Source: Bryobacterales bacterium (GTDB lineage: Bacteria > Acidobacteriota > Terriglobia > Bryobacterales > UBA6623). From it: a DNA stretch of 64,000 bases. The translations under genes were made by a program, and so were the position numbers. Shown piece after piece: positions 1 to 25,668 of this stretch (its first letter is position 1; the number at the start of each line of letters is the position of its first letter). The DNA lies in contig OZ241376.1 in NCBI GenBank assembly GCA_965200705.1, positions 2,210,813 through 2,274,812 of the forward strand, in the 5' to 3' direction. Under the pieces are notes generated by a model. It was not told where the DNA came from. It saw only the letters and a program-made list of their open reading frames with translations, and searched no databases.

Positions 1-2765
1 GCCTCGTCCTGCAGCGATCCACACTGCGCGATGACGCACTGCCCGCGTCGGAAGTCCAAGGCGTGCAGCATCTCGGCGTCGCCGTTGACGACGATGTTGG
101 GGTTGTGCGTCACGACGATGATCTGCCGCTGCACCTTGTTCTTGCGGATCAGCCGCACGATCAGGTCGTAGATCAGATGGTTGTCCAGATCGTCTTCGGG
201 CTGGTCCAGCACCAGCGCTTCCGTACCGTGCGCGAGCAGGAAGGCCAGCATCGCGGCCGAGCGCTGGCCGGCCGACGCCTGGGCGATGGGACGGAAGTCG
301 GTCCCGTCCCCCGCACGGTTGTAGTCGATACGCAACGCGTCCTCGGGGAACCACGTCAGCAGGTGGTCGAGGAGGGCGGGCCGGCGTTGCGACTCGCGCG
401 CCAGAAGGTTGTTGAAGTGGCCACCGAAGTCACCGTTTCCGGTGCAAGCACGTTCCAGGCGCGCCTTGAGACCGGCGATGCGCGCTTCGAGGGCCGCCGA
501 GCGCTTCGCGGGGTCCTCCGGCAGTTCGTCGAGCAGATCCGCTACGACGCCCTTCCTAGGCTGATCGTCTTCCAAGACGAGGATGTCCGCGCTGAACCGG
601 TCGTCGAGAACGTCCAGTGCCTCGCGCAGCGATCGTTCAATGACGCGCGGGTCGTCCCCGTAGGCGCGGCTCCGGATGCGCACGAAGGGGTTCTGCGACA
701 GCGTCTGCTCTAGGAAGGCGTTCCGGGCGCCGCTCACCCCGCGGCGGGCTTCCTGCATCGCCGCGAGCTGCTCCCGCGCTTCGCGCACCAGTCGGTCACG
801 TTCCTCCTGCACCGAGTCCAAGCGCGCCCTCTCGCCGTCGAGAAGCTGTCGGACCTGGGTCAGGTGGCCGTACTCGCTCGGGTCGCTCACGCCCTCCGCG
901 CACAGCGTCTCGATCAGATTCCTGTAGTTGGCGGCGGCCCCGTCCACGGCCGACTGCCAGGCGCTCGCTCGCAGTCCGGCGCCCTGGGACTCCGCGGCCT
1001 CGCGCAGGCGTCGCGCGCTGTCCTGAAGGCTCGATGCGGCGGTGCGCACATCGGCGGCGAGGGCGGCGATGACCGCGGTGGCCTGCCGGTCCGTCTCTTC
1101 GTCGGCATCGAACAGACCGTCGGGCGGATCCGCCGGCTCGAGTTCCGCCGCCACCCGTTCGATGTGATCGGCCATCGCCGCGGCCTCCTCGATCTGGCGA
1201 TCCGCTTCCACGCGCTGACGGTTGCGACGCCGGTAGCTCGTCAGGATCTCAGCATGACCGGCCTCCTCGAAGCGTTTCAACTTGCGCTCCACGTCCTGCT
1301 GCTGGACGACCACCTCGTCCCGGCGGCGCAACCGGCCGTCCAGCTCGCGAATCCGCGCCCGCAGGGCGAGAAAGGCGTCCCGTGCCTCTTGCAGGCGTTC
1401 CCGTGGTGCCGTTGCCCCCGCCGCCTCGTCGATCACCTGCATCAGCGCCTGCTGGTTCTCGCCCGCCAAGGCCGCAATCTGTCCCTGGCTGAACAGGCGG
1501 ATCGGGAATCGATCGCCTGTGACACTCTGCACTGGCGACGCGGACCAGGTGCCGTCGGGCGTCTCTTCCTCGACCGTGCATCGGTCGGCATCCTGTCCCC
1601 AGCGCACCCGATACCGCACGCCGTCGCGCATCACCGTCCAGCGGATCTTCGTCTCCCGGGTCAGTCCGCCGCGGTCGGACCGGTTCGTGGGCACCCGGGC
1701 GAACGCCTGGAAGACGACGCGGGGCTGACTGCGCTCGTCGAGACGCTTCAATTCGTGTTCACGTCGGGCGGCGAGCCTCAGGGCGTGGACGACGGTGGAC
1801 TTGCCGGTGCCGCGCCCTCCCACCAAGGCGTTGAGCCACGGGCTGAACGTGAACCGTGCCGGGACGCCGCGGCCCATGTATTGGGCGCAGTCAATCTCCA
1901 CCTCTTCCACGAAGTGTTCGGGAAGTGCGCACGGATCGAAGGGCTCCGGCTCGTCACTCCGGCGGACCGAGAAGCCCTTGCCGTCCAGCAGCGCGAGGCG
2001 CAGTCCGGGCAGCGACGGCGCGGCCATCTTGATCCACGTGTAGTGGGACCCGGGAAAGCGAGTGCCTGTGTCTTGGCTCGGGTGATGCGAGTCCGATCCG
2101 AGCACTTCGGCCCAGTCGAGCCGCCGCTGGCGATAGGATTCAGGTTTGACGGACCGCGGATCGACGACCTCCATCGCGAATAGGCCGACTGCGTCTAGCA
2201 GCGGCGCCAGCGTGCTTCCGGCCAGTCCCCAAGCTCCGCTCGGTCCATCGACATGAGCGAGAATCGGGATGCCGCCAGCGTTGCCGATTGCTTCGACCAC
2301 GCCGGTGGGTGCGCTGTTCGCGGCCACGTCGCTCGCACCCCACTGGCCGCGGTAGCCGACGGTCCCGAGCAGAGCCGCAATATCAGCGGACGACTTGTCG
2401 GCATCGAGTATTGCTAGGATGTGCACGCCGCCGCCGGCGCTGATCTCCACGCCGGGGAACAGATGCAAAGGGAGGAAGTCGGGGTGCGCATCGCGCTCCA
2501 ACTCGCCTAGTGCCTCCCGCAGCCGGTCAAACCACTCTCCCGAGTTGTGATCCGTGACCGCCACGCAGTCCACGCCGGCCCTCATGAAGTTGAGCAGCCA
2601 GTCCCGCGGGGCGATCTGGCGCAGGGACGCCTGATCCGTCCCTTTGCCGTAGTCCCGGGACGCCGGCGTGTGGGCATGCAGGTCGCATTTCCACCACCGT
2701 GCCCCCGGGTAGCGCCAGCGACCGCCGTCGCCACCGGCGCCGCTCGCGCCCCAGCTCGTCGTCAT
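1..2765 (-). CDS. PHP-domain / SMC-ABC-type ATPase fusion protein (resembles what I recall as 'TrlF family AAA-like ATPase'); C-terminus lies beyond the window
   Basis: The minus frame is open from the ATG at 2765-2763 to the window edge. It is absent from the track only because there is no stop inside the window. N-terminus MTTSWGASGAGGDGGRWRYPGARWWKCDLHAHTPASRDYGKG..AVTDHNSGEW..LGSDSHHP has PHP-type metal ligands. Walker A LVGGRGTGKST lies near 1795-1825 and is followed by a long coiled coil. ASAGQRSAAMLAFLLA..LVLDQPEDDLD..VVTHNPN (ABC signature, Walker B, D-loop) lies near 100-285. Confidence 0.8.
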   Translation of the reverse strand, partial: MTTSWGASGAGGDGGRWRYPGARWWKCDLHAHTPASRDYGKGTDQASLRQIAPRDWLLNFMRAGVDCVAVTDHNSGEWFDRLREALGELERDAHPDFLPLHLFPGVEISAGGGVHILAILDADKSSADIAALLGTVGYRGQWGASDVAANSAPTGVVEAIGNAGGIPILAHVDGPSGAWGLAGSTLAPLLDAVGLFAMEVVDPRSVKPESYRQRRLDWAEVLGSDSHHPSQDTGTRFPGSHYTWIKMAAPSLPGLRLALLDGKGFSVRRSDEPEPFDPCALPEHFVEEVEIDCAQYMGRGVPARFTFSPWLNALVGGRGTGKSTVVHALRLAARREHELKRLDERSQPRVVFQAFARVPTNRSDRGGLTRETKIRWTVMRDGVRYRVRWGQDADRCTVEEETPDGTWSASPVQSVTGDRFPIRLFSQGQIAALAGENQQALMQVIDEAAGATAPRERLQEARDAFLALRARIRELDGRLRRRDEVVVQQQDVERKLKRFEEAGHAEILTSYRRRNRQRVEADRQIEEAAAMADHIERVAAELEPADPPDGLFDADEETDRQATAVIAALAADVRTAASSLQDSARRLREAAESQGAGLRASAWQSAVDGAAANYRNLIETLCAEGVSDPSEYGHLTQVRQLLDGERARLDSVQEERDRLVREAREQLAAMQEARRGVSGARNAFLEQTLSQNPFVRIRSRAYGDDPRVIERSLREALDVLDDRFSADILVLEDDQPRKGVVADLLDELPEDPAKRSAALEARIAGLKARLERACTGNGDFGGHFNNLLARESQRRPALLDHLLTWFPEDALRIDYNRAGDGTDFRPIAQASAGQRSAAMLAFLLAHGTEALVLDQPEDDLDNHLIYDLIVRLIRKNKVQRQIIVVTHNPNIVVNGDAEMLHALDFRRGQCVIAQCGSLQDE

Positions 2766-3024
2766 CGCGCTCCCTCCATGTGCGCCGGCCCGTCCAGCGT
2801 CCCGGCGACGAGCTCGTCGCCGGCTGTGAACCATCGGGTCTCGGCATCGAACGCACGGGTAGCCGCCTGGATAGCCTGAACCTCTCGCTCCCCGAAATAC
2901 GGTTCGCCGCACTGCCGGCAGAGCTGTGCCGGTACGGCGACGAGCACCAGTGATAACCCCGTCGGTCGACGTGGAGCGGCTCCGTCGAGCGTTGCATCTC
3001 CCCTCGCCGGTGCATGCAGGTCAT
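2762..3024 (-). pseudogene. YgiT/MqsA-type zinc-ribbon antitoxin-like gene, frameshifted
   Basis: It starts MTCMHRRGEMQRSTEPLHVDRRG in one frame and continues LSLVLVAVPAQLCRQCGEPYFGEREVQAIQ in another. The span is 263 nt, not a multiple of 3. The second half carries the VPAxxCxxCGExYF motif, while the first CxxC reads C-M-H-R. The stop overlaps the PHP-ATPase start as ATGA (2762-2765). Confidence 0.5.
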
Positions 3025-3236
3025 CGAGTTCTCCCCGTGCGGAATTTCGGTTCCCAGGCGTCCACCGAGAGAGGATACGCTGTGATGACCGCAAGATGGC
3101 CAGCATTCGGTAAGAAAACGTGGATGACCCGTTGTCCGCATCCGCAGCCACGGACCAGACAACTCCGGCCATACGTACTCTTCACGCGATGAGCACGGCC
3201 CTGCGAGTAGGGTGGGACTAGTTCTCGGCGGCCGGA
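3021..3236 (-). pseudogene. DUF4258-like toxin remnant
   Basis: A stop-free 50-codon stretch (3173-3024) reads YGRSCLVRGCGCGQRVIHVFLPNAGHLAVITAYPLSVDAWEPKFRTGRTR*. This matches the remembered DUF4258 C-terminal pattern (yGpSCLvlG..GRplHvV....vITvY.Pd..W). The upstream part (..REEY) is in a different frame. The stop overlaps the YgiT-like ATG as ATGA (3021-3024). Confidence 0.45.
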
Positions 3237-3237
3237 T

Positions 3238-3345
3238 CTCGAAGAACAGAACGAGGGCCTCCCTCAGGCTGTCGTGCGCGTCGTCCACCGTCGCCCCCTC
3301 GCCGGCGATGTCCAGTTCGGGGCAGTGAACCACGTAGCCGTCGCC
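3238..3345 (-). pseudogene. HicB/UPF0150-like antitoxin fragment
   Basis: GDGYVVHCPELDIAGEGATVDDAHDSLREALVLFFE fits the HicB N-domain pattern (gY.a.vPeLpGc..qGeT.eEA..n..EAi.l.le). There is no in-frame start at a plausible distance, since the MQFAP start is one frame off, and no credible C-terminus. Confidence 0.35.
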
Positions 3346-3419
3346 GGTGCGAACTGCATCGCCTCGCGCAGATCGCCGGTGTGCCTCGCCGCACGTTGTA
3401 CTCCGTCATGCCGGCTCAT

Positions 3420-3899: not shown

Positions 3900-4211
3900 C
3901 GCGAAAGCTCCCTGATAGCGCCGACGATGCTCTAGGTGTTCCACCCGTCGATCCTATCGGCTGCCTGTTTGACGGGCAACGATGTCTTCTGACTACCCCG
4001 CGGTGCGATCGCAATGATCCGCTTCGGGCGCTTGAAGCCGTGTTGCGCCAGATTGAGTTCTTCTTCTATCCACTTGCTGCCCGTGGAGTGGGCGCCGGCC
4101 AAGATGAGAACGACGCCACACGGATTCATCTGGTTGCGAATGGCGTCGCGCAGTTGGGCGACCATTTTGGCGCCGTGAATCGGATCATCACGAGGAACCG
4201 AGTAGATCCGA

Positions 4212-4219
4212 AAACGGAA
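4212..4219. repeat. 8-bp target-site duplication AAACGGAA (left copy)
   Basis: It abuts the left IS end and is identical to 5140-5147. Confidence 0.9.
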
Positions 4220-5139
4220 GGCTCAATTCGCAAAACGTGTGTGTTTTTATCGAAATATTCTATAATTTTTTCGAATAAGGGACTTGGAGCCCATGACCAA
4301 CGAGGAGTTCCAGCGCTGGATGGCCGGGGTGGAGCAGCTGACGACGGCCCAGCGGGAGCGGCTGCAGCAGGTCGCTCAGGAGCAGGGGGACGAAGCGGCC
4401 GCCCTGGCCGCGATCGAGCTGCGCATCGACGAGAGACGGCGCTGCCGGGCCAGCGGCGCGGTCCGGCGCGGCTACGCAAACGGGCTGCGCCGCTACGCCG
4501 CAAGGCCTGCCGGCGGACGGTCAACGCGCTGACCGGGACGCCGCTGGCGGGCCTGCGGGCGCGCGTGGGTGGCCCGCGAGGCGGGAGAGCCGGACGTGCC
4601 GCTGGCCGGGCTGGTGGAGGCCGACGAGACGTGCTTCCGGCACAGCCGCAAGGGGGAGCGGGGCCTGGACCGCACGCCGCGCCGGCGCGGGGGGCCGGCC
4701 AGGCGGCGCGGCCTGTCGCGGGAGCCGGCGCCGATGCGGGGGGCCACGGCCCGCGGGCGAAAAACGGCGGGCGCGGTGCTGGAGACGGCCAGCCAGGCGA
4801 ACCTGCAGGAGGCGCGGAAGCCGCTGCGGGCTCCCGACGCCGTGCTGGTGACGGACGGCGGGACAGGCTGCCCGGGCTGCGCGCGCAGCCTGGGGGTCCA
4901 GCACGAGGCCGTCAACCGGGCAGCGCCTGCCCGGCAGCCACCCCATCCAGACGATCAACCAGCGCCACCGGCAGCTGCAGCAGTTCCTGCTGCCGTTCCA
5001 CGGCGTGGCGACCAAGTGCCTGGGCAACCATCTGCGCTGGCATCAGGAGATCGGTCTGGCCAGCCAGCCCTCTACGCGGGCTTGCCTGCTCGCCTCCTCC
5101 CTGGCACCCCAATGCACAACACGTTTCGCGAATTGAGCC
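4220..5139 (+). mobile_element. IS1595-family insertion sequence, copy 1; transposase gene defective (at least 3 frameshifts)
   Basis: Terminal inverted repeats are GGCTCAATTCGCAAAACGTGTG (4220-) and the reverse complement of cacaacacgtttcgcgaattgagcc (-5139). Transposase pieces lie in three frames: MTNEEFQRW..; ..KACRRTVNALTGTPLAGLRAR; LVEADETCFRHSRKGERG..RRRGLS..VLVTDGG..GVQHEAVN; ..HPIQTINQRHRQLQQFLLPFHGVATKCLGNHLRW. Confidence 0.85.
4261..4266 (+). promoter_or_regulatory. TATAAT box in the AT-rich leader of the IS1595-like transposase
   Basis: A perfect TATAAT sits in a local AT-rich patch about 27 nt before the AAGGGA..ATG (4293) of the transposase N-terminus. No convincing -35 was seen. 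Confidence 0.3.
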
Positions 5140-5147
5140 AAACGGAA
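5140..5147. repeat. 8-bp target-site duplication AAACGGAA (right copy)
   Basis: It abuts the right IS end. To my knowledge 8 bp is the usual IS1595-family duplication length. Confidence 0.9.
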
Positions 5148-5258
5148 ACGGTGTCTCGCCCGCGACAGACGTTTGAGTCGGTCGTAATGATCCGAGCATC
5201 TCCACGAGTGGCTGATGAAAAGGTGATGCGTCCTCATGGCTACTCTCTCGACCCAAAC

Positions 5259-5608: not shown

Positions 5609-6040
5609 TCATGATTGCAGCGGGTGGCGCCACCTCAAACCTGGAAAGCGGGCAAAGTCGCGGTCGGTCGTGATCCATTCACATCCGTGCTCGATGGCCA
5701 TGGCGGCTAGGTAGGCATCCGGTATCAGGTTGCCCTTTGCGCCCGCCTCGCCGCACAGACGACGAAAGATCCGCCAGTGATCGCGTCCCGGCGTGACAGC
5801 AACGCGATTGGGGCACTGGCGAAGGTCTTCGGCGAACTGTATGGCGTCCATCAACGCGCTCGGAGGCGCAAAGATTCTCGGGTGAGTGACGATACGCAGG
5901 AATCCACTGATGACGAGATCGCTCAGCCCGAACGCGGAGTCGGCATTGACAACCGATTCCAGCCAGTCTCGGTAGGACCGATGGTCAGGCGCGTCCTCGC
6001 GGTGCGCATAGACGAGCACGTTGACGTCGGGCAGGATCAA
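5609..6040 (-). CDS. vapC: VapC PIN-domain toxin
   Basis: MILPDVNVLVYAH..LIPDAYLAAMAIEHGCEWITTDRDFARF shows the typical PIN acidic residues and TTDxDF. A 4-bp overlap joins it to the upstream antitoxin. Confidence 0.9.
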   Translation of the reverse strand: MILPDVNVLVYAHREDAPDHRSYRDWLESVVNADSAFGLSDLVISGFLRIVTHPRIFAPPSALMDAIQFAEDLRQCPNRVAVTPGRDHWRIFRRLCGEAGAKGNLIPDAYLAAMAIEHGCEWITTDRDFARFPGLRWRHPLQS

Positions 6041-6282
6041 TCTGTCCCGTCCATTACGTCCAGCATCGCAGCGGAATCGTCCAAGTCGATACCTGGGCGC
6101 AACCCCCTACCCCCGCTTGTCGTGAGCCGCACTCGCGCACGCGGTTCGGCACGGGTCGCGCTCCGCGCCAGTCGTTCGCGCAGAGACTCCTCGATGATGG
6201 CCGTAAGAGTCATGCCGGATCGGGCGGCCTCTCGCTTGGTCTCCCGAAGGAGCGCATCGCCAAGTCGAATCGTTGTCCTCAT
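6037..6282 (-). CDS. vapB: VapB-type ribbon-helix-helix antitoxin
   Basis: MRTTIRLGDALLRETKREAARSGMTLTAIIEESLRERL is an RHH N-terminus. The likely start is the MRTTIRL Met rather than the track's 6306. Confidence 0.8.
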   Translation of the reverse strand: MRTTIRLGDALLRETKREAARSGMTLTAIIEESLRERLARSATRAEPRARVRLTTSGGRGLRPGIDLDDSAAMLDVMDGTD

Positions 6283-6801
6283 GACGCACATTAGCATACA
6301 ACGCAAGGCATCAATATGTCACAGACCCGAGCACGCCCCATCCCTCGTCTCCCTGTCACGGCGCAAACCGTATCCACGGGTCGGCGCAGGCGCTCCGGGA
6401 CCGCGACCACGAGCCGCACGTGGTGTCGGGCCCTCGCTCGGTTCGCGAAGCCCGACCGCCAGCCCCGGGACCATGCGACCAGTCCGTGCCGCCTTCGATG
6501 CCGTCCTGCATGCCTGGCGACACGCTGTGTCCTGCCCCATTTCATTGCGGTCGAACGTCGTACGGGCCCGAGAGCGAAGCAACGGACCGATGCAGGGAGC
6601 CTTCATGACGACTCGCGGGGTGAGGCCCGGGCAGCTGGAGAGCCAGGCACTCCACGCCCCCGCGACGAGCCACGCGGGAACGCCGTTTCGAGCACCCCCC
6701 GACGGTCCCGGAAGGCCCGGCCCGGGACGGCGGGCGGTGACTATACTGCGGGAATGCCGGACCGGAGGGAAGGGAACGGTCGCTTGACCCTTGCTGCGGG
6801 G

Positions 6802-6850
6802 GCGGGTGCTACCTTTGGTGGCCATCCACCAAGAGCAGGGCAGCGTGGCG
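6802..6850. repeat. Arm 1 of a perfect 49-bp inverted repeat
   Basis: GCGGGTGCTACCTTTGGTGGCCATCCACCAAGAGCAGGGCAGCGTGGCG is the exact reverse complement of 8615-8663. Confidence 0.95.
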
Positions 6851-7487
6851 GGAGGACGTTCACGTGGGCGGCGGCCTGCTGTGGTACTACCGCGAAGGGG
6901 ACAACACGGCGAGGGTGGCGCCGGACGTGTTCGTGGCGCTGGGGGTGCCGCGGGATCCGCCGCGGGACTCCTACAAGGTGTGGGAGGAGGGCAAGACGCC
7001 GGACTTCGTGCTGGAGGTGGCGGCGCCGTTGAAGGCGAGGCTGGACCGCGAGGGGAAGCGCGAGCTGTACCAGCGGCTGGGAGTGCGGGAGTACTGGATG
7101 CACGACCCGGACGGTGGGCTGCACAGGACGCGGCTGCAGGCGCTGCGGCTGGTGGGCGGAACCTACCGCGCCGTGAAGGTGGAGCGGGATGCCAGCGGTC
7201 ATATCCGGGCTCGGAGCAAGGTGCTGGGCCTGGACCTGCTGTTCGACGGGGACCGGCTTCGGATTTGGGATCCGGTGGCCGGCCGGTTCCTGCCTACGGT
7301 TGAGGAGTTGGAGGCGTGGGCAGAGGCCGAGCGGCGGCGACACGAGATCGAAGCGCGAGCCGAAGACGAGAAGAGGCGGCGACGCGAGGACGAGGCAAGG
7401 GCGGAAAGAGAACAGCTAGCGAGGGAAGAGTCCGAAGCCAAACACCGAGCGGAGATTGCAGCACTCAGGAAGCGGCTCGGCAACTAG
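6851..7487 (+). pseudogene. Uma2-family (DUF820) endonuclease, 5'-truncated, with a C-terminal charged coiled coil
   Basis: ..EDVHVGGGLLWYYREGDNTARVAPDVFVALGVPRD..YKVWEEGKTPDFVLEVAAP..REYWMHDP matches the middle and C-terminal part of Uma2 proteins. About 60-80 N-terminal residues are missing. Family similarity starts exactly at the repeat boundary, and the first in-frame start is the GTG at 6864. Confidence 0.75.
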
Positions 7488-7986
7488 GCTCGTGTGGTTG
7501 GCAGTGCCCCGTCACGTCTCGACGGGGGAGGCTGTAGGACTGAGCGTGAGAGCGGCGGAAATGCCATCCGGCGTGGCTCTGTCCTCGTGGGCTTGTCAGC
7601 GGTCCCAGACTAGGATGCCGACTGATTGAGCGCTGACACCTTGGTGTAATCTGGCCCACCCAAGGGTCGGGGAAGAGCCTTACGTTGGCGCCCTAGACCG
7701 GAAACTCTGTCTAGGAGCCGCCGATGGTGAGTCCCGCTGCCGTGCCGACCAACCGCAAAGCATTGAGAAGCTGGCCGACGAGGAATGCCCCCGATTACTG
7801 TCCCGGCGCAAGTCACTGGATTCCGCAGTGCGGTGCGCGGACATCGGTGCCACGGTATGCGCACGACGATTATCGGAAAACCATGGCGAAACCCTCGGAG
7901 TTCACCCCTCCGTGCGATCGAAGCGAACCGGACCTAAGCGCGAAGGATTCCTTCCCAAGGCGCGTAGCAGACCCGTCCCGCGGCCG

Positions 7987-9192
7987 CTAGCCCCGTCTCA
8001 GAGGACCAAAGAACCGACGCCAGCACATCGCCAGACCGGTCCAGACCATGACTGCGACGCCAAGCGAGACGACACCGGCGATCGACTGTCCGATCACTCC
8101 ATACACCTCTCCGGTGTGCGCAAACCGCAGCCAGCGGCGCACCTTTAGGCCGGGACTGTAGGTCGGGTAGCCCGACCGTTCGACCAAGTCGCCGGTTGAC
8201 CGGTCGAACAGAAGCTGTTCCGTTTTCGAAGGCTGACGGCCCGTACCGCGGTCCACCATTATCGAGACGGGCTCACGCACGGACTGGGGCAAGCTCAGCC
8301 GGATCGTCCGCCATTCGGGTGTCTCCGCAACTGCCTTCGCGGCCAGGGTCTCAAGATCGACCAACGGGGCTGCCGGATCCGACCGAGCGGACTCAGGTTC
8401 CGACGCGGCAGACTGCGACGGTGCGCTCGAAGCCTGAGAAGGCGGAGTGTCGCTGGCAAGCCAGTAGACAAAGTCTCCCGCCCACTGATAGGAGATCGAG
8501 GCGCCGCTGGCGATGATGATGGCGAGCGGAACAGCCGACCAGAAGCCGATCACGCTGTGCCAATTGAAGTTGCGGGCACGGCCGGTAAGTCCGCGCCTGA
8601 ACCACAGGACCTGTCGCCACGCTGCCCTGCTCTTGGTGGATGGCCACCAAAGGTAGCACCCGCTCACAAGCAGGAACAGGAAGCCGAGGTTGGCAGTGGC
8701 CGTGAACGTGCGGCCGATGATCCGGTAGTCCCCTTCGAGAGCGAACCACCTGTGCCAGTACATGACGCTACGCAGGAAGCGTCGCGTCTGTGTGTTCCCG
8801 TCGCCCACCTTCTCGCCCGTGAAACGGCTGACGTATTCGTTGGCCCTGTCGATCCGGACGACCGCCGGCTCCAGCGGATCCTTCGTCACTGCTATCGAAC
8901 TGACACGAACGCCCGGCGACCTAGCGCTGACCTGCGCGACAAGATCGTCGAGCGCAAGCGGCGCAACGCCCACGGGTGACGGTTCGGCAAGATAGCCGCG
9001 AAGGGCCCAGCGATTGAATTGCGCCTCGTAGGTGAGGATCACGCCGGTCGCAGCCATCATGAACACCACGATGGCTGCGGCAACGCCGACCGCAAGATGT
9101 ATCCAGAAGATCGCCCTGCGCAGGGCCATTACTTGCAAAGTATGCCGAACCGCTCGGCCAGCCCGCCGGAGAGTGCCGTCGAACCGCACCAC
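7987..9192 (-). CDS. PepSY-associated TM-helix domain protein (PiuB-like)
   Basis: RRAIFWIHLAVGVAAAIVVFMMAATGVILTYE..RSVMYWHRWFAL..GCYLWWP..NFNWHSVIGFW..RWLRFAHTGEVYG. The start may instead be the MALRRAIFW Met at 9129. Confidence 0.85.
   Translation of the reverse strand: MVRFDGTLRRAGRAVRHTLQVMALRRAIFWIHLAVGVAAAIVVFMMAATGVILTYEAQFNRWALRGYLAEPSPVGVAPLALDDLVAQVSARSPGVRVSSIAVTKDPLEPAVVRIDRANEYVSRFTGEKVGDGNTQTRRFLRSVMYWHRWFALEGDYRIIGRTFTATANLGFLFLLVSGCYLWWPSTKSRAAWRQVLWFRRGLTGRARNFNWHSVIGFWSAVPLAIIIASGASISYQWAGDFVYWLASDTPPSQASSAPSQSAASEPESARSDPAAPLVDLETLAAKAVAETPEWRTIRLSLPQSVREPVSIMVDRGTGRQPSKTEQLLFDRSTGDLVERSGYPTYSPGLKVRRWLRFAHTGEVYGVIGQSIAGVVSLGVAVMVWTGLAMCWRRFFGPLRRG
8615..8663. repeat. Arm 2 of the 49-bp inverted repeat, inside the PepSY coding sequence
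   Basis: It encodes GCYLWWPSTKSRAAW of the PepSY protein on the minus strand. Confidence 0.95.
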
Positions 9193-9270
9193 GTGGGGTG
9201 CCTATGCGGCTCCCGCAACCGCGCACGCCAAGGTCAAGACCGAGAGCGCAGGCGGTTTCTCAATCGCCCC

Positions 9271-9438
9271 TTACTCGGTGGAGTCGCTATCCGAGGGGCT
9301 TTCCGGTTCGCTCTCGGACCCACCGTCGGAGTCGGTCCCACCGGGGCAGGCGGTGGCTAGAGCGACACCCGCCGCGATTGATCCAATCGCCACCGCGCGT
9401 GACACGAACGAACGACGGTCAACCCGAGTTGAGGTCAT
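9271..9438 (-). CDS. 55-aa Tat-signal/lipobox peptide with a very acidic Ser/Asp/Glu tail
   Basis: GAGGA precedes the ATG. It reads MTSTRVDRRSFVSRAVAIGSIAAGVALATAC|PGGTDSDGGSESEPESPSDSDSTE*, with a twin-arginine motif and an LATAC lipobox. It lies just upstream of, and co-oriented with, the PepSY gene. Confidence 0.5.
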   Translation of the reverse strand: MTSTRVDRRSFVSRAVAIGSIAAGVALATACPGGTDSDGGSESEPESPSDSDSTE

Positions 9439-9640
9439 TTCCTCGTCCCTCAGCGATGCCTGACGACCAGTGGTGGGCCTAGAGTCTTCCTGTCTGCGCA
9501 TGATGCTTCTCCTGTCCATCGAGCGTGGAAAAGACGCAACATAGTAGCATATAGGCGCCCAACAAGGGGTGCCAATCAGCGAGGGCCCGTGCCGGTGCGG
9601 CACGACGGCTCACTGTCACGATCGTCCAGAGAACGCGTGC

Positions 9641-10849
9641 ATGATGGCGGATCACGGCACTGGGCCAGCGGGCGGCCGCGACTGGTTCGACTGGCTCATC
9701 GATCCGCTGCCAACCGACCAGTTTGAACGCGACTACTACGAGCGGCGACCGATTCACATTCGTCGCGACGCATCTCGGTACTACGCCGAGCTGCTCTCGG
9801 TCAACGACCTAGACACCGTGCTTGGCACACATGCGGCCAGCTATCCCGACATCAGCCTAGTTCGGGAAGGCGGCGATGTCGATCCAAGCGAGTACACGAG
9901 CGGCGGAACCAAGATCCAACCGCTCGAGGTCGCGCGGTGCTTCGATGACGGAGCGACCGTGATCTTTCGGCAGCTACACAGACGTGTACCGTCCCTAGCG
10001 CAGATCTGCGTGGCTCTGGGGCGCCACTTCTCTTCGCGTGTCCAGACGAACGTGTACCTGACTCCGCCCGGCGAGCAGGGATTCGCCCCTCATTGGGACA
10101 CGCACGATGTCTTCGTGTTGCAACTGAGTGGCATGAAGCGCTGGTCGCTCTACGACACCAAGGTGAGGCTGCCCCTGAAGGGCCAGCGCTTCGAGCGGGG
10201 CATGCCGCCTGGCGACCTTCAAGACGAATTCGATCTTGGACCGGGCAGCGCCGTATACCTTCCACGTGGCCTGATGCACTCCGCCCGTTCGACGGGCGAG
10301 GCGTCGCTGCACATCACGCTGGGGCTCACGGCCTTCACGTGGGCGGAGTTCCTAGCCGAGAGCGTCGCTGCAGCAGCGCTCGGGGAGGACTCGCTGCGCG
10401 AGAACCTTCCCCGGCGATTCGCCCTCGATAGCTTCCCCACGGCCGAGCGCACGCGTCTGTTCGCGGAGAAGCTGCAGGTGGTGCAGTCCCGGTTCGACCC
10501 CGGGGTGGTCTGGCGGCGATTCACGGACGAGGTGCTGGCCACCGACGTACCGCTGTTCACCGACCTTCTCAGCCAGCGACTCAGCCATGAACAGCTGTCG
10601 CACACCTCGCGCGTGAGGCCTCGAGCTGGCCTGCTCAAGGAAGCCCTGACGGACGGTGACATGTGCCTTCTCAGGTTTGGCGGCCGCGAACTCAGGTTGC
10701 CCGGCCGGGTGTGGCCTGCGCTCCACTTCGCTACAACCACCGACGAGTACACAGCAACGGATCTGCCCGACTGCCTGGATGCGCAGGGGAAACTGACCTT
10801 GGTGGCGCGACTGGTCAGGGAGGGCGTCCTTCAGCGGATCTCTTCCTGA
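9641..10849 (+). CDS. JmjC/cupin-4 family oxygenase (RoxA/YcfD-like)
   Basis: ..NVYLTPPGEQGFAPHWDTHDVFVLQLSGMKRWSLY..GSAVYLPRGLMHSARS shows the HxD...H facial triad in a cupin fold. The ATG at 9641 is preferred over the track start. Confidence 0.85.
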   Translation: MMADHGTGPAGGRDWFDWLIDPLPTDQFERDYYERRPIHIRRDASRYYAELLSVNDLDTVLGTHAASYPDISLVREGGDVDPSEYTSGGTKIQPLEVARCFDDGATVIFRQLHRRVPSLAQICVALGRHFSSRVQTNVYLTPPGEQGFAPHWDTHDVFVLQLSGMKRWSLYDTKVRLPLKGQRFERGMPPGDLQDEFDLGPGSAVYLPRGLMHSARSTGEASLHITLGLTAFTWAEFLAESVAAAALGEDSLRENLPRRFALDSFPTAERTRLFAEKLQVVQSRFDPGVVWRRFTDEVLATDVPLFTDLLSQRLSHEQLSHTSRVRPRAGLLKEALTDGDMCLLRFGGRELRLPGRVWPALHFATTTDEYTATDLPDCLDAQGKLTLVARLVREGVLQRISS

Positions 10850-11008
10850 CTTCGGACAAGTCGGCCGATTCAGAAGCGCATAAAATCACTGGGGTCTCTT
10901 CGGACGGGGCACTGCTCGCTAACGAGCGAAGTGGGCGACTGGCTGACCCCTAATCAGTCTCGATGAGTTGGCTGCGACCATAGGGGTGATGCCGAAGAAG
11001 GAGAATCC

Positions 11009-11830
11009 ATGAAGCGGTCCGTTGCCATCCTCTTGGCTGCGCTGCCCCTGTATGCGGCACCTACCATCGACCTGTCCTTGGAAGAGCTGATCAGCGAGGG
11101 CTCCGCGCAGTTTGCAAAGAGCTGCGCCGTCGGCTACTGCCATGGATCCGAGGGACGGTCGGCGCGTGGTCCTGCGCTACGCGACCGGGTCTGGGACCCT
11201 CACGACCTCTACCGCATCACCGCCGAGGGGCTTCCCGGGACCAGCATGCCTGGCTGGCACGCCATTCTGGGCACTGAAGGGATTTGGGCCGTTACCGCGT
11301 ATGTGCTTAGCCTTTCGAGCGAACCGCCGACCGGTGCTGCGGCGCTAGTGGAGGCGACGGCCGAACCCGGCGGCCAAGAGCCTTCCGAACTGTCCGACAG
11401 AGCTGCCCGCGGCAAGTTCCTGTTCTTCGACCTGACGCGTATGCAACGCTGCGCCGTCTGCCACGAGATGGATGGGCTGGGAACCGCCGTGGGTCCCAAC
11501 CTTGCGATCGCAGCGCAGTCCAAGACCAGCGAAGAGCTGACGCGGGACATCCTCGAGCCGCACGCGACCATCGCATATGGGTTCGAGCAGTTGCAGCTGA
11601 CGCTGAATTCCGGGGAACGCATCGAAGGAGTGTTGGCAGACGAATCCGAAGGCGTCGTGCAGGTCTTCGACGCCGCCTCCGTGCCGCCACCACTGCGGTC
11701 GGTACGGAAGACGGATCTGCGAAGCCAGCGGACCGTCAGCCGGTCTTCGATGCCCGAGGACCTCGCCACCGTCTACACGGGGGACGAGCTCGCAGCAATC
11801 GTCGCCTATCTCGACGAGAGCGCAGAGTAG
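11009..11830 (+). CDS. Secreted di-haem c-type cytochrome with a Pirellula/Verrucomicrobium-type haem-binding domain
   Basis: A signal peptide is followed by CAVGYCH (CX4CH) and CAVCH (CXXCH). The second domain reads ..GPNL..ILEPHATIAYGFEQ..SMPEDLA..LAAIVAYL. Confidence 0.85.
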   Translation: MKRSVAILLAALPLYAAPTIDLSLEELISEGSAQFAKSCAVGYCHGSEGRSARGPALRDRVWDPHDLYRITAEGLPGTSMPGWHAILGTEGIWAVTAYVLSLSSEPPTGAAALVEATAEPGGQEPSELSDRAARGKFLFFDLTRMQRCAVCHEMDGLGTAVGPNLAIAAQSKTSEELTRDILEPHATIAYGFEQLQLTLNSGERIEGVLADESEGVVQVFDAASVPPPLRSVRKTDLRSQRTVSRSSMPEDLATVYTGDELAAIVAYLDESAE

Positions 11831-11878
11831 TTGCGCACGTAGCGCGGGGCAATGCCCAGACGGGATATGGCCCTTCGC

Positions 11879-13231
11879 CTACGCCCGGCTGAAGACCGAG
11901 TCGTTCAGCGAGCCGGTGCTGTCCGCAAACGACTCCAGTCCGATGCCCATGGAGCGCAGGATGCTGACGTACATGTTGGCCATGTGCGAGTCGCCGTTGC
12001 GCCAGTATTGCCCATGCTTCAGTCCCATGCCCGCGCCGCCAGCCACCAAGGTGGGCAGGTTGGTCGGATTATGCGTCGTGCTGGCACCGCTGCCGTACAG
12101 GACGATCGTGTTGTCGAGCACGGTGCCCTCACGGTCGCGGTAGCTGTTCATACGCTCGAAGAAGTGCGCGAGCTGCTCGCTTAGGAACAAGTCGTACTTG
12201 GCGAACTGGTGCTGCCCTTCCTTGTCGGTCGCGTGCGAGAGCTTGTGGTGGGTATGGGTAAGGCCGAGCTTCAGGGGGAACGTGTCGCTGATGCCCATGC
12301 CATCCTCGCGATTGAGCATGAACGCGATGGAGCGCGTGATGTCCGCGTCGAAGGCCAGCGAGATCAGGTCGAACATCGTGCGGTAGTAGTCGGCCGGCTC
12401 CCCCTCCGGCGTCGCGTCGAGGTCCAGGTGCGAGTAGTCCTGCTCCTTGATGGGAATGTCGATCCAGCGCTCGGAGGCGATCAGACGAGACTCGACCTCG
12501 TTCAGCGAGGTCAGGTACTGGTCCATGCGCTCGCGGTCCGAACTGCCGAGCTGGCGGTCAAGGGAACGTGCACTGTCGGCAACCGCGTCCACGAGCTTGA
12601 TGCGCTTCTGCAGCTGGGTGCGCTGCGTCTCGAGCGATGCGCGGTCTCCCCGGAACAGGCGGTCGAACACGCGGCGAGGGTTGTTCTCGGCCGGAATCGG
12701 ACGCCCTTCGAGGCTGTAGGAGATCGTGCCCGTACGGGACAGGAACCCAGTGCCGGCATCGATCGAAAGCACCAGCGAGGGCTGGCGGCAGAACTGCTTC
12801 GTGTGCTGGGCAACGATCTGGTCAAGGCTGACGGTGTTATACGTGCTCGAAGTCGGGTTGTGCAGCGGCGCGCCGGTGAGCCACATGTCCGAGCAGGTGT
12901 GCGGGTCGGCCTTCGGTCCGCTTGGGTGGTGCAACCCACCCATGAAGCTCAGCTGGCCGCGGAATGGACGCAGTGGCTCGGTGGACTTGCCGAAGACGAA
13001 CTCGCCACCTTCGTCCGAGGCGGTCGGGAACCAGCTCCACTCGTCGATCGCGTTCTCGGCCCGTGGCAGGGACATGCCGTTGGCCGTGTACAGGGCACAG
13101 AAGCGACGTGGAACGTCCTCCGCCACCGAGGCGCCCATGGCGTCCAGCACAGGCAGCGCCAGCGAGATCCCCCCGATGCCACGAAGAAATGCGCGGCGGT
13201 CGATGGTCTGTTTCGTGCCTACGAGTCTCAT
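11879..13231 (-). CDS. DUF1552 domain protein (Tat signal)
   Basis: [32 protein letters not shown].. is the typical DUF1552 N-terminus, and the gene is paired with a DUF1592-type gene upstream. Confidence 0.9.
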
Positions 13232-13237
13232 GATCGG

Positions 13238-16200
13238 TCAGTTCTCCAGAAACAAATCGCTTGCGACGACATGGTGCACCATGTCCCGCATCCGGTACCC
13301 ACCAGGGGCCAACGCAAGCGCGTCTCGCTTCAGCTGCCGGAGTTCATTGTACTTCAGGGTGCGGCCATTGGCGTACGTCAAAAGGTGCTTCAGAACGCTG
13401 AAGGCCACCTGGTCGATGCGGTCGTCCGCCAGATAACGCTTCAGTTCGCGAACTCCCGCGATCTCGGTGCCGTCCGGCAGAGCGGAAGCTGCGTCCACCT
13501 GCTCCGCCTTGAATCGGCCGGCTGCGTCGATCTCCTCGAACGGCACACCCCACGGATCGATCTTCTTGTGGCATTCAGCGCATCCGGGCTGGTTCCGGTG
13601 CATCTCGAGACGCTTGCGCAACGACAACCCCTCGGTCTCGAGCGACAGGTCCGGCACGTTCGGCGGCGGCGGATCGGGCGGCTCGGCTACGATCTTGCGG
13701 GCGACCCACGCACCGCGCTTGACAGGGTTCGACTCCCGCCCGTCGGACAGTCCGGCCATGACTGCGGCCTGCGAGAGCAGTCCACCGAGCTCCGGACGGC
13801 CGTGTGGCACGGCCACGAACTCGAGTCCAGACTCGACCATTTCACCCAGTCCGTAGTAACTGGCCACCACCTCGTTGGCCATCAGGAAGTCGGACTCGAC
13901 GAAGTTGCTGGCGGGAAGGTTGTGGCGGATCAAATACTGGAGCAGCTCGACCGGCTCCTGCCGCAAGTTCACGCGGGCTTCGCGGGTCAGGAGCGGGAAG
14001 CGCTCGCGATCAGGCTCCAGGACATCGAATTTGTCTAGGGCGAGCCACTGCGACGTGAACTGCTGCGCAAACTCCGAGAAGCGGGGATCCGCGATCATGC
14101 GGTCCACTTCCTCGGTCAGCTGGCCGCGGAGGGCTCCCTGCTCGGCAAGATTCCTGGTGCGCTGGTCGGGAGGACCATTCCAAAGGAAGTACGACAGCTT
14201 CGATGCAAGCTCGGTCTCTTCGATTGGCTCTGCCTCGGGAGTCTCGCTGCTCTCCACGAGGAGCAGGAACTGCGGTGATGTCAGGGCGACGCGCAACGCG
14301 TCGGCGATGCTCTCGCGGAAGCCGGCTCTCCCGTCGAAGGCCTGCCGGTACGCTCCCAGCAGGGCGGTCTCCTCCTGCGGCCTGGCGGGCCGCCGAAACG
14401 CCCTGGCGGCGAAACTGCGGATGATCTCCCGCGCGTAGGCTTCGCCATCGGACCTACGGCCGGACTCCACGAAGATGCTCTGGTGCGAGCGCGGAGGCCA
14501 GCTCTCGTAGAACGGGCCCTCGAACTCCACCGAGCGCACCAAGAGCCGCGGCATGTCGCGTCCGTCCGTGTGCTCGCTCCGAACGGCGATCTCGCGGATC
14601 CCCGCCAGATAGTTGACGTTGTCTTCCTCGACATCGGGACTCGGATAGTCGCGGATCGCGCCCTCGAACACGAACTTCGAGATCTCGTCACTGTGAACGG
14701 GCTGGGCCTTGCCAACCGGAGCGAACGTGCTCCCGCAGTCGCGCCGGAGTCCGAGATGCACGCCGAGCCGCGGTACGCGCGCCTCGAATGCCTCGAAGCG
14801 ATCCCGGATTTCGTGGTCCTCAGGCAGCGGAGTCAGGACCACCTGCTCGATTGGCCTGGGGCCGTTCCGCACCACGCCCACCTCGAGCGGTCCCGCCGGG
14901 AGCCGCAATGCGACGAAGGCGGGCCGGTCGAGTGTGCGAGCGAATTCCCGCTTGCCCAGCGACAGGCTCACTTCCTGCGGCTTGTCGGGAGGTGGCTCCA
15001 CGAACCGGCGACCGGGCTCCACCAGCGTCTGCAACTCGGCCGGCTCCAAGGCGCGACGGTAGAGGCGCGCATCGGCGATTTCACCGACGAAGTTCGGCGT
15101 GTCCCCAACGCGACCGATCTGGAGATCGAGGTCTAGGTTGCCCAGGTTCTCCGCATCAAGAGATCCCGTCGCCATCGGGTATCCGTTGACGTATAGTTGC
15201 GTGCCCCCTTTGCCTCTCCGCACCACAGCGGCCACGTGCTGCCACTTCTTCGCCTTGATCATTCGCAACGGGGAGACGACACTGCCGGCCGAGGTCAGGT
15301 CAGGTCCCAAGGCACCTATGCCAAGCGCACCCCGCTGGTCGGCCAGTTCGAAGTACCATCCACGCGCCCACTCGTGCGAACCGAGAGCCACAATGCCCGA
15401 CCTCTGCAACTTCTCCGGACGGATCCATGCCGCCACCGTGAAGTCCCCCTCGCCCACGTCCATCGAGGGCCGGGCCTCGAGACTGACCCAGTCACCGGTT
15501 CCCTGCAGCGACACCGCCTCGCCCAAGGGCGAGTCCACGACGCTGGCGCCTCCGTGACGGCGGATCGCCTCGCTTTCGTCTCGGGGCCAGGTGCCTGACA
15601 GATCCCGCATCAGATCGGTGGCGGGCGAGGGTGGCGGAGGCACGGGTCGCGAACCTTCGTGCACATCCACCTGGTACACGCCGCCACGCTCGATCGTGAC
15701 GGGACGGGCTTCACCGGGTTCGGCAAGGACGATCGCCTTCGGGCCGGCGGGATCCTGCGGGCCGTCGCCCTTGTCCAGCAGCAGACCGTCGTCATACCTT
15801 GCGGCATGAACCGTCACGCGGAAGCGCCCGTAGTCCGGCAGTTCGCGCACCGAGATCTTGAAGTTGGCCTTCGGGCCATAGGTGCCCTCGCTTCGGAAGA
15901 TCTCGTCCGTCGGGATTGCGGGCCGAAGCAGCAGACCCTCCGGCACGGTTGTGTAGGGCGTGCCCTTGGGGTAGCCCTTGCTGCCCCGCATCCCGGCGAA
16001 CACAGCGTGGTAGAGACTGTCGTAGTCGCGCCACCCGCGCACCGTGGCATTGCCCTTGTAGCCCTCGTGGAAACGGTACTTGGTCCGCATTCTGCGGTGC
16101 TCGAACGGAAATTCTTTCTCCGGCACCGGCTCCTCGATGACGTAGTCGGCGTCGTCCAGAAGCTGGCTGTTGGCGCCGAGGATGAGCTTCACAGGCAGCG

Positions 16201-24726: not shown

Positions 24727-25568
24727 GGATCAATTTGTTGAATATATGTATTTTGATCGTTACATAATTTAATTGATTTACAATGAGGGACTTGGAGTCC
24801 ATGACCAACGAGGAGTTCCAGCGCTGGCCGGCCGGGGTAGAGCAGCTGACGACGGCCCAGCAGGAGCGGCTGCAGCAGGTCGCCCAGGAGCAGGGGGACG
24901 AAGCGGCCGCCCTGGCCGCGATCGAGCTGGGCATCGACGAGAGACGGCGCTGCCCGCGCTGGCGGGCCTACGGGCGGGCGCGGGTGGCCCGCGAGTCGGT
25001 CCGCGAGGCGGCCGGCCGCTGCGGGGTGGCGCTGGCGGCACCGCTGCGGGGCGCAGGCGGGAGAGCCGGGCGGGCCGCTGGCCGGGCTGGTGGAGGCCGA
25101 CGAGACGTGTTGCCGGCACAGCCGCAAGAGGGAGCGGTGCCTGTCGCGGGAGCCGGTGCCGGCGCGGGGGGCCACGGCCCGCGGGGGCGGGACGGCGGGC
25201 GCGGTGCTGGAGACGGCCAGCCAGGCGAACCTGCAGGCGGCGCGGAAGCCGCTGCGGGCGCCCGACGCCGTGCTGGTGACGGACGCCGGGACAGGCTGCC
25301 CGGGCTGCGCGCGCAGCCTGGGGGTCCAGCACGAGGCCGTCCACCGGGCGGCCGGACAGCGCCTGCGCGGCAGCCACCCCATCCAGACGGTCAACCAGCG
25401 CCACCGCCAGCTGCAGCAGTTCCTGCTGCCCTTCCACGGCGTGGCGACCAAGTGCCTCGGCGACCATCTGCGCTGGCATCAGGAGATCGTCTGGCCAGCC
25501 AGCCCTCCCCGCGGGCCTGCCTGCCCGCCTCCCTGGCACCCCAATGCACACGTTTCGCGAATTGAGCC
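24727..25568 (+). mobile_element. IS1595-family element, copy 2; diverged left end, transposase gene defective
   Basis: The right end cacacgtttcgcgaattgagcc (-25568) matches copy 1. The left 64 bp are colinear with copy 1 but much more AT-rich (ggatcaatttgttgaatat..). The body reads MTNEEFQRW..CPR..SVREAAGRCGVAL..LVEADETCCRHSRKRER..VLVTDAG..HPIQTVNQRHRQLQQFLLPFHGVATKCLGDHLRW, with deletions and frameshifts. The left boundary is approximate. Confidence 0.7.
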
Positions 25569-25668
25569 TTGCGTTCCGTGTCGGCTTCGGAACGTTTCCT
25601 TCGGTGCGCCGCCAACACCCTGACAGGCGCAGGCAGGGTACGAAGTTGGCAGTATAGTAACGGGCAGT

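Follow-up and report, generated by a model that had tools for sequence, protein, structure and literature searches.

An intact TrlF-family homologue of the anti-phage nuclease Ppl in a Bryobacterales bacterium

Ppl is an anti-phage gene of E. coli (Gao et al. 2020, Science 369:1077, as cited in PMC11482910). In summaries of its published mechanism, the protein is described as a 3′–5′ ssDNA exonuclease that is inhibited by NTPs and triggered by 3′-OH overhangs (Xu et al. 2026, Mol Cell 86:180; PMC12904381; PMC13434339). The name TrlF comes from Photorhabdus laumondii, in which the Temperature Restricting Locus is composed of trlR-trlF-trlG. In this organism, growth arrest is relieved when trlG loses its function by mutation, and no trlF mutation was ever obtained in the selection for growth at 36 °C, so the role of TrlF in the Photorhabdus locus is unproven (PMC7554251). 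In addition, the SLFN+GHKL module of SLFN-pAgo is known to cleave tRNA, aborting infection (bioRxiv 10.64898/2026.05.29.728809). Here, a gene related to these systems is described at the left edge of a 64,000-nucleotide stretch of DNA from a Bryobacterales bacterium (hereafter, the window).

The gene lies on the minus strand at 1..2765 and encodes residues 1–921 of a protein of 952 aa. The frame 2765..3 runs through 921 codons without a stop, and the chance that a random frame of the local base composition would remain open over this length is approximately 1.5e-9. An identical database protein (P0001, 100% identity) has 952 aa, so the gene is essentially complete, with 31 C-terminal residues off the window; the remaining 31 codons are located past the left edge, together with the stop, and the frame stays open there. 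A Shine-Dalgarno sequence, GGAGG, was read from the sequence at 2773..2777 on the minus strand, with a 7-nt spacer to the ATG. The GC3 value of 0.83 is the same as the host mean. The ratio dN/dS, calculated against five relatives, is 0.15–0.26, and since all motifs are also intact, the gene appears to be under continued purifying selection, as the original prediction had proposed.

The protein is a member of the TrlF family. The NCBIfam TrlF model (NF045780), whose cutoff is 350 bits, gave 509.6 bits (E 2.7e-152) with residues 21–920 aligned to model positions 2–918 of 944, a score that was reached with 31 residues missing. Besides this whole-protein score, the family features found here are the PHP motifs and the ABC/SMC head split by a helical insertion. 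The PADLOC profile for Ppl (PDLC02208) matched at 356.6 bits (E 7.3e-107) over profile positions 4–867 of 894. In BLASTP, the alignment with E. coli Ppl (WP_000233113.1) was collinear from end to end, with 29% identity over 953 columns (E 1e-106); the identity with the TrlF of an E. coli plasmid is approximately 50%. E. coli Ppl itself passes the TrlF model with 476.5 bits. On the narrower Ppl equivalog (NCBIfam NF042955), the window protein scored 446.6 bits against a cutoff of 1000 bits, while genuine E. coli Ppl scored 1330.5 bits. The window TrlF fails this narrow cutoff, so the Ppl mechanism is carried over approximately 30% identity. The original prediction had regarded the PHP-fused version as having no characterised function. 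This was wrong, since the protein belongs to the NCBIfam TrlF family, Ppl lies above the cutoff of the same model, and the mechanism of Ppl has been published. Because the gene falls in the TrlF family, and because anti-phage nuclease activity has been proven for the E. coli relative Ppl, it is best read as an intact member of a widespread family and a normal bacterial immunity gene, not as an uncharacterised new fusion.

The architecture consists of an N-terminal PHP domain followed by an SMC/Rad50-type ABC ATPase head, which is split by a coiled coil of approximately 240 residues. All of these parts are encoded on the minus strand. The PHP metal-dependent phosphoesterase/nuclease domain (residues 21–262; 1980..2705) is assigned from invariant motifs, the AF2 fold and a related NCBIfam match, and carries the metal-ligand motifs D28-x-H30-x-H32, D72-H73-N74, E107, H115, H171-x-D173 and D225-x-H227. 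The N-terminal half of the ATPase head (residues 285–450; 1416..1913), supported by motifs, a profile search and AF2/Foldseek, contains the Walker A motif GGRGTGKST (G316–T324; 1794–1820) and Q427 of the Q-loop. The helical insertion follows (residues 452–689; 699..1412) and is recognized from the AF2 helices and Foldseek; the modelled helices span residues 452–479, 482–501, 504–541, 557–599, 602–623 and 631–689, with pLDDT mostly 80–95. The C-terminal half of the head (residues 806–921; 3..350) is assigned from Pfam AAA_21 and invariant residues in the alignment, and has 89% identity to the closest relative. It includes the signature SAGQ (S831-G833-Q834; 264–275), the Walker B/D-loop LDQPEDDLD (L853–D861; 183–209) and the H-loop H887 (105–107). 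In an alignment that included E. coli Ppl (A1), the PHP and ABC motif residues are invariant among TrlF and Ppl relatives, and all of the approximately 30 catalytic and structural invariants are kept in the window protein.

The profile searches gave a mixed outcome. The TrlF model and Pfam AAA_21 (PF13304; 46.1 bits, above the gathering threshold of 27, residues 821–892) matched, while SMC_N (PF02463) reached only 35.4 bits against a gathering threshold of 40, and Pfam PHP (PF02811) had no match in the window protein at E ≤ 0.01. Weak matches were obtained with the related NCBIfam models for CehA/McbA metallohydrolase (28.3 bits) and RNase RNM (19.9 bits). Because the Pfam PHP profile gave no match, the fold was tested by structure prediction. 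For the AF2 model of residues 1–280, the best 20 PDB matches were all of the PHP family, with E-values down to 3.5e-8, and 2anu, 3o0f, 9etk, 7ug9 and 5zb8 were matched at a probability of 1.00. The predicted model therefore confirms an N-terminal PHP fold. Foldseek matches of the modelled ATPase part were the heads of JetC, Smc, MukB and Rad50 with their coiled coils, and E-values for SMC, Rad50 and JetC ranged from 1e-10 to 1e-4, so that an SMC/Rad50/JetC-like head is likewise confirmed at the level of the model. The claim of a single polypeptide of more than 921 aa, cut by the window edge and composed of a PHP domain, a coiled coil and an ABC head, thus stood.

Taken together, the gene is probably an intact TrlF-family homologue of Ppl, in which a PHP nuclease and an SMC/Rad50-like ABC head would form an NTP-restrained 3′–5′ exonuclease that halts phage replication. 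By analogy with E. coli Ppl, TrlF would most likely stay inactive as long as cellular NTPs occupy its nucleotide sites. Phage infection would deplete the NTPs and create 3′-OH ends, and TrlF would become active. The active protein would then degrade DNA from 3′-OH ends in the 3′–5′ direction, and phage replication would stop. The anti-phage activity, the substrate and the trigger of the window TrlF are those that we infer from Ppl.

The distribution of the relatives can be compared with this reading. Relatives at 55–72% identity were found in Acidobacteriota, Gammaproteobacteria, Latescibacterota, Gemmatimonadota, Chloroflexota, Bacteroidota, Binatia and Rokubacteria, and horizontal transfer has carried TrlF relatives into at least eight phyla. 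A number of them are located inside defence clusters, namely BREX-1 (loci L012 and L016), BREX-3 (L027), DISARM-like (L024, L010 and L009) and MADS8 (L019). The E. coli plasmid TrlF adjoins a type I-like restriction-modification pair, and Ppl adjoins pifA/pifC. The defence-type logic that had been proposed for the protein agrees with these clusters and with the PADLOC Ppl match.

In most relatives, the gene would be part of a two-gene operon with TrlG, the kind of protein that cleaves tRNA in other defence systems. By tblastn, trlG, which encodes a Schlafen-AlbA_2 domain and a GHKL ATPase, was found directly downstream of trlF in 22 of 25 related loci; in these 22, the trlF stop is directly adjoined or overlapped by TrlG-like sequence, which is full length in 17. 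The TrlG architecture in relatives is supported by Pfam matches of 57 and 61.5 bits (AlbA_2 and GHKL ATPase) and by a PADLOC match of 50.5 bits to the pAgo N-terminus; PADLOC v2 has no TrlG model. At least 19 contigs are putatively common to the TrlF and TrlG match lists. None of the best 120 TrlG matches came from the source contig. In the locus of the window, the position of TrlG is beyond window base 1.

This linkage allows for a different explanation, in which TrlF is the sensor or accessory half of a TrlF-TrlG (TRL) module, the effector TrlG lies just past the window, and TrlF alone gives little or no defence. We consider this to be a serious possibility, with a probability somewhat below even. 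Besides the downstream position of trlG and the shared contigs, it is favoured by a second, deeply diverged TrlF-like/TrlG-like pair that occurs in tandem in L007, by the relief of growth arrest upon trlG loss in Photorhabdus and by the tRNA cleavage of the SLFN+GHKL module, both mentioned above. Nevertheless, a single gene suffices for Ppl in E. coli, and the enterobacterial plasmid TrlF genes of L001 and L030 have no TrlG. Moreover, L004, the closest relative, and L012 have a truncated TrlG (approximately 70 homologous residues in L004), while trlF is intact in both. The full conservation of the PHP active site speaks for TrlF as an effector in its own right.

At the level of the family, TrlF and TrlG could tentatively be viewed as a distinct, unnamed two-component defence system, a proposal that we hold at somewhat less than even odds. 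It would combine a Ppl-like sensor-nuclease, responding to DNA ends and NTP levels, with a Schlafen-type tRNase carrying a GHKL ATPase, and the temperature restriction in Photorhabdus would be its autoimmunity. The pair would often be a cassette inside BREX/DISARM operons, and the window gene would represent a cassette of this type, whose partner, past the left edge, would be either intact or lost. Among the papers that could be searched, none linked TRL or TrlG to phage defence.

The genes next to trlF are partly decayed. Directly upstream, a YgiT/MqsA-like zinc-ribbon ORF (2762..3024 on the minus strand; tested as ORF 2762–3172) is a pseudogene remnant. Its frame shifts by 1 nt near 2950, and C-M-H-R stands in place of the first CxxC. 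The scores remain below the cutoffs (TIGR03831, 19.0 vs. 20.2 bits; TIGR03830, 19.2 vs. 61.8 bits), and the frame-repaired product reached 21.4 bits with MqsA_antitoxin, below the gathering threshold of 30. The ATGA overlap of the two genes is real, with the trlF ATG at 2765–2763 and the YgiT-like TGA at 2764–2762. The conclusion once drawn from it, that the genes had been translationally coupled, is weak, because trlF homologues also overlap unrelated upstream genes by 4–8 nt, such as AbiEii in L002 (source gene calls) and the upstream genes in L012, L024 and L027 (longest-ORF calls). Five elements of the island are broken, namely the YgiT-like gene, a ThsB-like TIR gene split by an IS-like element, the IS-like element itself, an 8xMP fragment and an N-terminally truncated Uma2. 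However, VapC (PIN, 63.7 bits), VapB (RHH) and a 401-aa PepSY_TM gene are intact, and the statement in the original prediction that nearly every other gene is broken was somewhat overstated. Two further candidates, a HicB-like fragment (about 3240–3350) and a DUF4258-like fragment (about 3021–3140), had no Pfam support even at E ≤ 1 and were rejected.

No sigma-70-like promoter was found in a scan upstream of trlF, a result that is uninformative for a non-model phylum. The missing promoter-like site and the pseudogenes upstream of trlF speak against an active Ppl homologue. Together with the dead upstream operon partner, they would suit an orphaned, non-functional remnant that has merely not yet acquired a stop codon. 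Such a remnant is nonetheless very unlikely, given that the approximately 30 invariants are kept, dN/dS is low, the Shine-Dalgarno sequence is intact, GC3 matches the host and the full 952-aa frame is open.

Another explanation regards TrlF as a physiological growth regulator that is unrelated to phage and restricts growth by temperature, a role that has been proposed for the TRL operon of Photorhabdus. The family name and the only genetic study, in which the growth arrest was temperature-dependent, are in its favour (PMC7554251). However, the Photorhabdus phenotype was mapped to trlG and not to trlF. The placement in BREX/DISARM clusters and the anti-phage activity of Ppl agree better with a role in immunity, in which toxicity at high temperature would be an autoimmune side effect, and a pure growth regulator is highly unlikely.

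Finally, a housekeeping DNA-repair enzyme in the form of a fused SbcCD/Mre11-Rad50-like nuclease-ATPase is extremely unlikely: the structural matches do include Rad50, SbcC and SMC heads, PHP domains have a proofreading role in Pol X and Pol III, and one relative (L013) adjoins AddAB-like genes, but no flanking gene is common to the window island and the 25 relative loci except for a short Uma2-region match to L005 (blastx), close relatives are dispersed among eight or more phyla, many of them lie in BREX/DISARM/MADS clusters or on conjugative plasmids, and the protein cluster of the window TrlF has one member.

A Ppl-like immunity gene thus remains the preferred reading. For the window itself, this carries little weight, as the gene would be a routine, nameable defence gene. 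The tight trlF-trlG linkage, including the diverged pair in L007, is the more useful result and concerns the whole family. It ties together the biochemically understood Ppl nuclease, the Schlafen + GHKL effector module, whose action has recently become clear, and the unexplained temperature restriction in Photorhabdus, and this connection between nuclease, effector and phenotype is directly testable with existing strains.

Among the known SMC-like defence ATPases, JetC (Wadjet), LmuB (Lamassu), AriA (PARIS), GajA (Gabija) and PtuA (Septu), as well as Rad50/SbcC, share with TrlF an ABC head into which a coiled coil is inserted, and likewise combine an ATPase sensor with a nuclease. In structural comparisons, JetC matched at E 4.7e-10, and LmuB and AriA at 1e-3. 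The sequence likeness of LmuB, AriA, GajA and PtuA to the window TrlF is, however, limited to ATPase motifs. Membership in Lamassu, Gabija, Septu or PARIS was rejected, with partial ATPase-motif matches only (LmuB 36.3, GajA 22.5, PtuA 18.1 and AriA 43.4 bits), and none of their cognate partner genes occur within the window. The nuclease of the window TrlF is a fused N-terminal PHP domain and not a Toprim, HNH, Cap4 or separate Mre11-type subunit. The Schlatpase proteins (SLFN_AlbA_2 + GHKL ATPase; SLFN-pAgo N-terminus) have the architecture of TrlG; this likeness concerns the partner of the relatives and not the window trlF, and no Schlatpase-type gene is visible within the window.

The closest systems are those with which this account began. 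With TrlF (NF045780), the window protein shares the whole-model score and the combination of PHP and AAA-like ATPase domains, and its close relatives share a downstream TrlG (AlbA_2 + HATPase_c_4). It differs from the Photorhabdus TRL operon in that its source is not gammaproteobacterial, the closest relative being a Vicinamibacterales MAG at 72% identity, and in that a dead YgiT/MqsA-like ORF, apparently not trlR, lies upstream; neither trlG nor trlR is visible within the window. Ppl differs by its low identity (29–31%), by the lack of a TrlG partner and by its location on IncF plasmids beside pifA/pifC. Nevertheless, the window protein and Ppl are collinear from end to end, and the PHP ligands, the Walker A and B motifs, the signature and the H-loop residues are identical in both.

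The trlF gene was read as a single open frame of 921 codons on the minus strand (2765..3), and the chance of a random open frame of this length is ~1.5e-9 at the local base composition. The frame runs stop-free to the window edge, as in the original prediction, and a protein 100% identical to it (P0001) is complete at 952 aa. The window lacks only 31 C-terminal residues of TrlF, and the gene is neither truncated nor damaged past the edge. A Shine–Dalgarno sequence (GGAGG, read from the sequence, minus strand) lies 7 nt upstream of the ATG (2765-2763), which shares bases with the TGA (2764-2762) of an upstream YgiT/MqsA-like ORF in the predicted ATGA overlap. For the former translational coupling deduced from it, this overlap is weak evidence. 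It is unspecific, and trlF homologues overlap unrelated upstream genes too, namely AbiEii at locus L002 (source gene calls) and others, by 4–8 nt, at L012, L024, and L027 (longest-ORF calls).

The encoded protein is a Ppl-type member of the TrlF family. It scored 509.6 bits on the NCBIfam TrlF model named in the original prediction (curated cutoff 350; model positions 2–918 of 944), and the runner-up was the anti-phage protein Ppl. The PADLOC Ppl model was matched over nearly its whole length (E 7.3e-107). In a calibration, genuine E. coli Ppl (WP_000233113.1) was scored on both models, with 1330.5 bits for Ppl and 476.5 for TrlF; since it lies above the cutoffs of both, Ppl is a narrow clade that the TrlF model also takes in.

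Pfam recognized only the ATPase parts of the window protein (AAA_21, 46 bits; SMC_N, 35 bits and just below threshold) and gave no PHP match at E <= 0.01, so the PHP assignment was tested by structure. In the AlphaFold2 model of residues 1–280 (pLDDT 75, pTM 0.79), the best 20 PDB matches were all of the PHP family (lowest E 3.5e-8; probability 1.00); they include TM0559, BAD_1165, RNase AM, endonuclease Q, and the Pol III alpha PHP domain. The predicted PHP domain was therefore found as a fold but not as a Pfam profile. In the full-length model (pLDDT 76, pTM 0.61), the nucleotide-binding head is predicted to be interrupted by ~240 residues of long helices, and its fold matches were the heads with coiled coils of JetC (Wadjet), Smc, MukB, and Rad50, with LmuB and AriA weaker. 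Neither sequence nor fold searches of the PDB found a Ppl or TrlF structure. When window TrlF was aligned with its close relatives, with two TrlF proteins from enterobacterial plasmids, and with E. coli Ppl itself, the PHP ligands (D28/H30/H32, D72-H73-N74, E107, H115, H171/D173, D225/H227) and the ATPase motifs (Walker A GGRGTGKST, Q427, signature S-x-G-Q, Walker B/D-loop LDQPEDDLD, H887) were all invariant. The layout of PHP domain, Walker-A/coiled-coil region, and ABC head was thus read correctly from the sequence.

Ongoing selection, also part of that reading, is borne out by dN/dS values of 0.15–0.26 against five relatives, at a partly saturated dS of 0.8–1.8. Identity to the closest relative is 89% in the ATPase C-lobe and 62% in the coiled coil. 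At 0.83, the GC3 of trlF is the same as the average over 23 large chromosomal genes of the window (0.833 +/- 0.038), and the neighbouring island genes range from 0.67 to 0.76. With its low dN/dS and host-like GC3, trlF looks maintained and compositionally at home, neither a recent arrival nor a decaying remnant.

The description of the surrounding island as decayed was largely right for the YgiT-like, TIR, IS-like, 8xMP, and Uma2 genes but overstated for VapC, VapB, and PepSY_TM, which are intact. The YgiT/MqsA-like ORF is a pseudogene with a frame change near 2950 and Arg in place of the second Cys of the first CxxC, and it scores just under family cutoffs, the frame-repaired version included. 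An IS-like element of ~930 bp (~4213-5146), bounded by inverted ends of 29 nt, cleanly interrupts a ThsB-like TIR gene (3932-5237, minus). Joining 5237-5147 to 4212-3932 restores a ThsB_TIR match over profile positions 1–99 of 100 (43.2 bits; 32.3 for the fragment). The element recurs 20 kb away (~24782-25575) as a second copy of 82–95% identity, with indels, and the transposase frame is disrupted in both copies. The ORF for an 8xMP membrane protein is only partial, and ~65 N-terminal profile positions are missing from Uma2. A VapBC pair (5609-6306, minus; PIN toxin VapC of 143 aa, 63.7 bits, and RHH antitoxin VapB, with a 4-nt overlap) is apparently intact in this otherwise decayed island, and the PepSY_TM gene encodes 401 aa. 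A 54-nt inverted repeat (6802-6855 and 8610-8663; 96% complementary, 1754 nt between arms) has one arm within PepSY_TM and the other immediately before the Uma2 ORF with its truncated N-terminus; an inversion or partial duplication may have left this repeat as a scar. From ~9.3 kb onward, the window has the appearance of ordinary chromosome, with topoisomerase I, two large UvrD/AddAB-like helicase-nuclease ORFs, and DUF1501/DUF1553-type genes (32877-38860, minus, and 26361-29051, plus, were noted), as well as one tRNA-His (51565-51641).

The TrlF family comprises 971 clusters at 50% identity (E <= 1e-30). Scanning one genome per species, in a set without the source genome, yielded 25 loci with relatives, the closest (72% identity) in a Vicinamibacterales MAG. 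Proteins 55–70% identical occur in Bryobacterales, Gammaproteobacteria, Latescibacterota, Longimicrobiales, Chloroflexota, Bacteroidota, Binatia, and Rokubacteria; such identity across scattered phyla points to horizontal transfer. Two relatives of ~1450 aa (P0077, P0085) carry an N-terminal ADP-ribosylglycohydrolase domain (PF03747) joined to the TrlF body, which could reflect a true fusion or an error in gene calling.

The defence-type interpretation is supported by the PADLOC result and by the neighbourhoods, as at least 10 of the 25 loci lie in defence contexts, a lower bound because annotation covered recurrent clusters and the largest neighbours only. In these relatives, trlF lies between PglX and PglZ/BrxL of BREX-1 (L012; L016, 10001-12820), beside an SNF2 helicase and the PglZ of BREX-3 (L027), beside a DUF1156 methyltransferase and a DrmD-like helicase of DISARM (L024, L010, L009), beside MAD8 (L019), or behind HicB-like and AbiEii genes (L002/L004). 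Elsewhere, the relatives are isolated insertions amid housekeeping genes. Apart from a short Uma2-region match to L005, no flanking genes are common to the island and the 25 loci. At L012, L016, and L027, a trlF(-trlG) cassette has inserted into the BREX operon.

Where conjugative plasmids of enterobacteria encode TrlF, its gene comes after either a type I-like helicase/methylase pair or a type II R-M pair; Ppl lies beside pifA/pifC. Many of these plasmids carry a DEAD helicase (type I-like), an N6 methyltransferase, and then TrlF between finO and repA, with no TrlG. One example is the E. coli IncF plasmid pL37-4 (L001, 3290-10838), whose TrlF is 49% identical to the window protein. A TrlF/Ppl-like match occurs in 1158 plasmid records, 840 of them conjugative.

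The partner TrlG was followed by tblastn of the ORF after trlF in L005 against the 25 loci. Homologous sequence abuts or overlaps the trlF stop in 22 of them (17 full length, two insertion-interrupted, one frameshifted, two truncated), and the partner's domains (SLFN_AlbA_2, 57 bits; HATPase_c_4, 61.5 bits) form the exact TrlG architecture. At least 19 contigs, matched by size, are common to the best-120 TrlF and best-120 TrlG matches. L007 holds tandem pairs, the first (5755-9679) deeply diverged (its TrlF-like protein scores 354 bits against the TrlF model, and its TrlG-like protein has 26% identity) and the second (9977-13925) with trlG broken by a ~2.4 kb insertion. L012 trlG is truncated to ~108 residues. 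The corresponding position at the window locus lies beyond base 1; since TrlG is cut down to ~70 homologous residues in the closest relative (L004), either an intact or a truncated state is plausible there. PADLOC v2 has no TrlG model, and in the literature searched, TrlG is mentioned by the Photorhabdus paper only.

TrlF owes its name to the trlR-trlF-trlG operon of Photorhabdus laumondii, the Temperature Restricting Locus described in that paper (PMC7554251; bioRxiv 10.1101/2020.06.02.129163). Growth at 36 °C becomes possible when trlG (AlbA_2 + HATPase_c_4) is mutated, and none of the mutations fell in trlF. Ppl was described as a single-gene anti-phage system in the screen of Gao et al. 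2020, as cited in PMC11482910, and phage Bas63 gp130 counters it. According to summaries (PMC12904381, PMC13434339) of Xu et al. 2026 (Mol Cell 86:180), Ppl degrades ssDNA as a 3'-5' exonuclease. NTPs bound to both its PHP and NTPase domains keep it inhibited, and it is activated when phage depletes nucleotides and phage homing endonucleases generate 3'-OH ends. The view that the PHP-fused version is uncharacterised can therefore be set aside. By analogy with Ppl, NTPs would keep TrlF off, phage-driven NTP depletion and exposed 3'-OH DNA ends would turn on the 3'-5' exonuclease of the PHP domain, and this activity would halt phage replication. Judging from SLFN-pAgo and Photorhabdus genetics, TrlG, where present, probably contributes or carries out a response that arrests growth and is directed at tRNA. 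Tentatively, and leaning somewhat towards doubt, TrlF-TrlG could be a distinct two-component defence cassette, with the Photorhabdus temperature restriction as its autoimmunity.

Compared with known systems, TrlG in TrlF relatives shares the architecture of the SLFN+GHKL "Schlatpase" module, the tRNA-cleaving effector of SLFN-pAgo, whose tetramerisation is driven by ATP binding (bioRxiv 10.64898/2026.05.29.728809). Window TrlF is ~50% identical to E. coli plasmid TrlF and 29% identical to Ppl over the entire length (E 1e-106), but differs from the latter in remaining below the Ppl model cutoff (446.6 vs 1000 bits).
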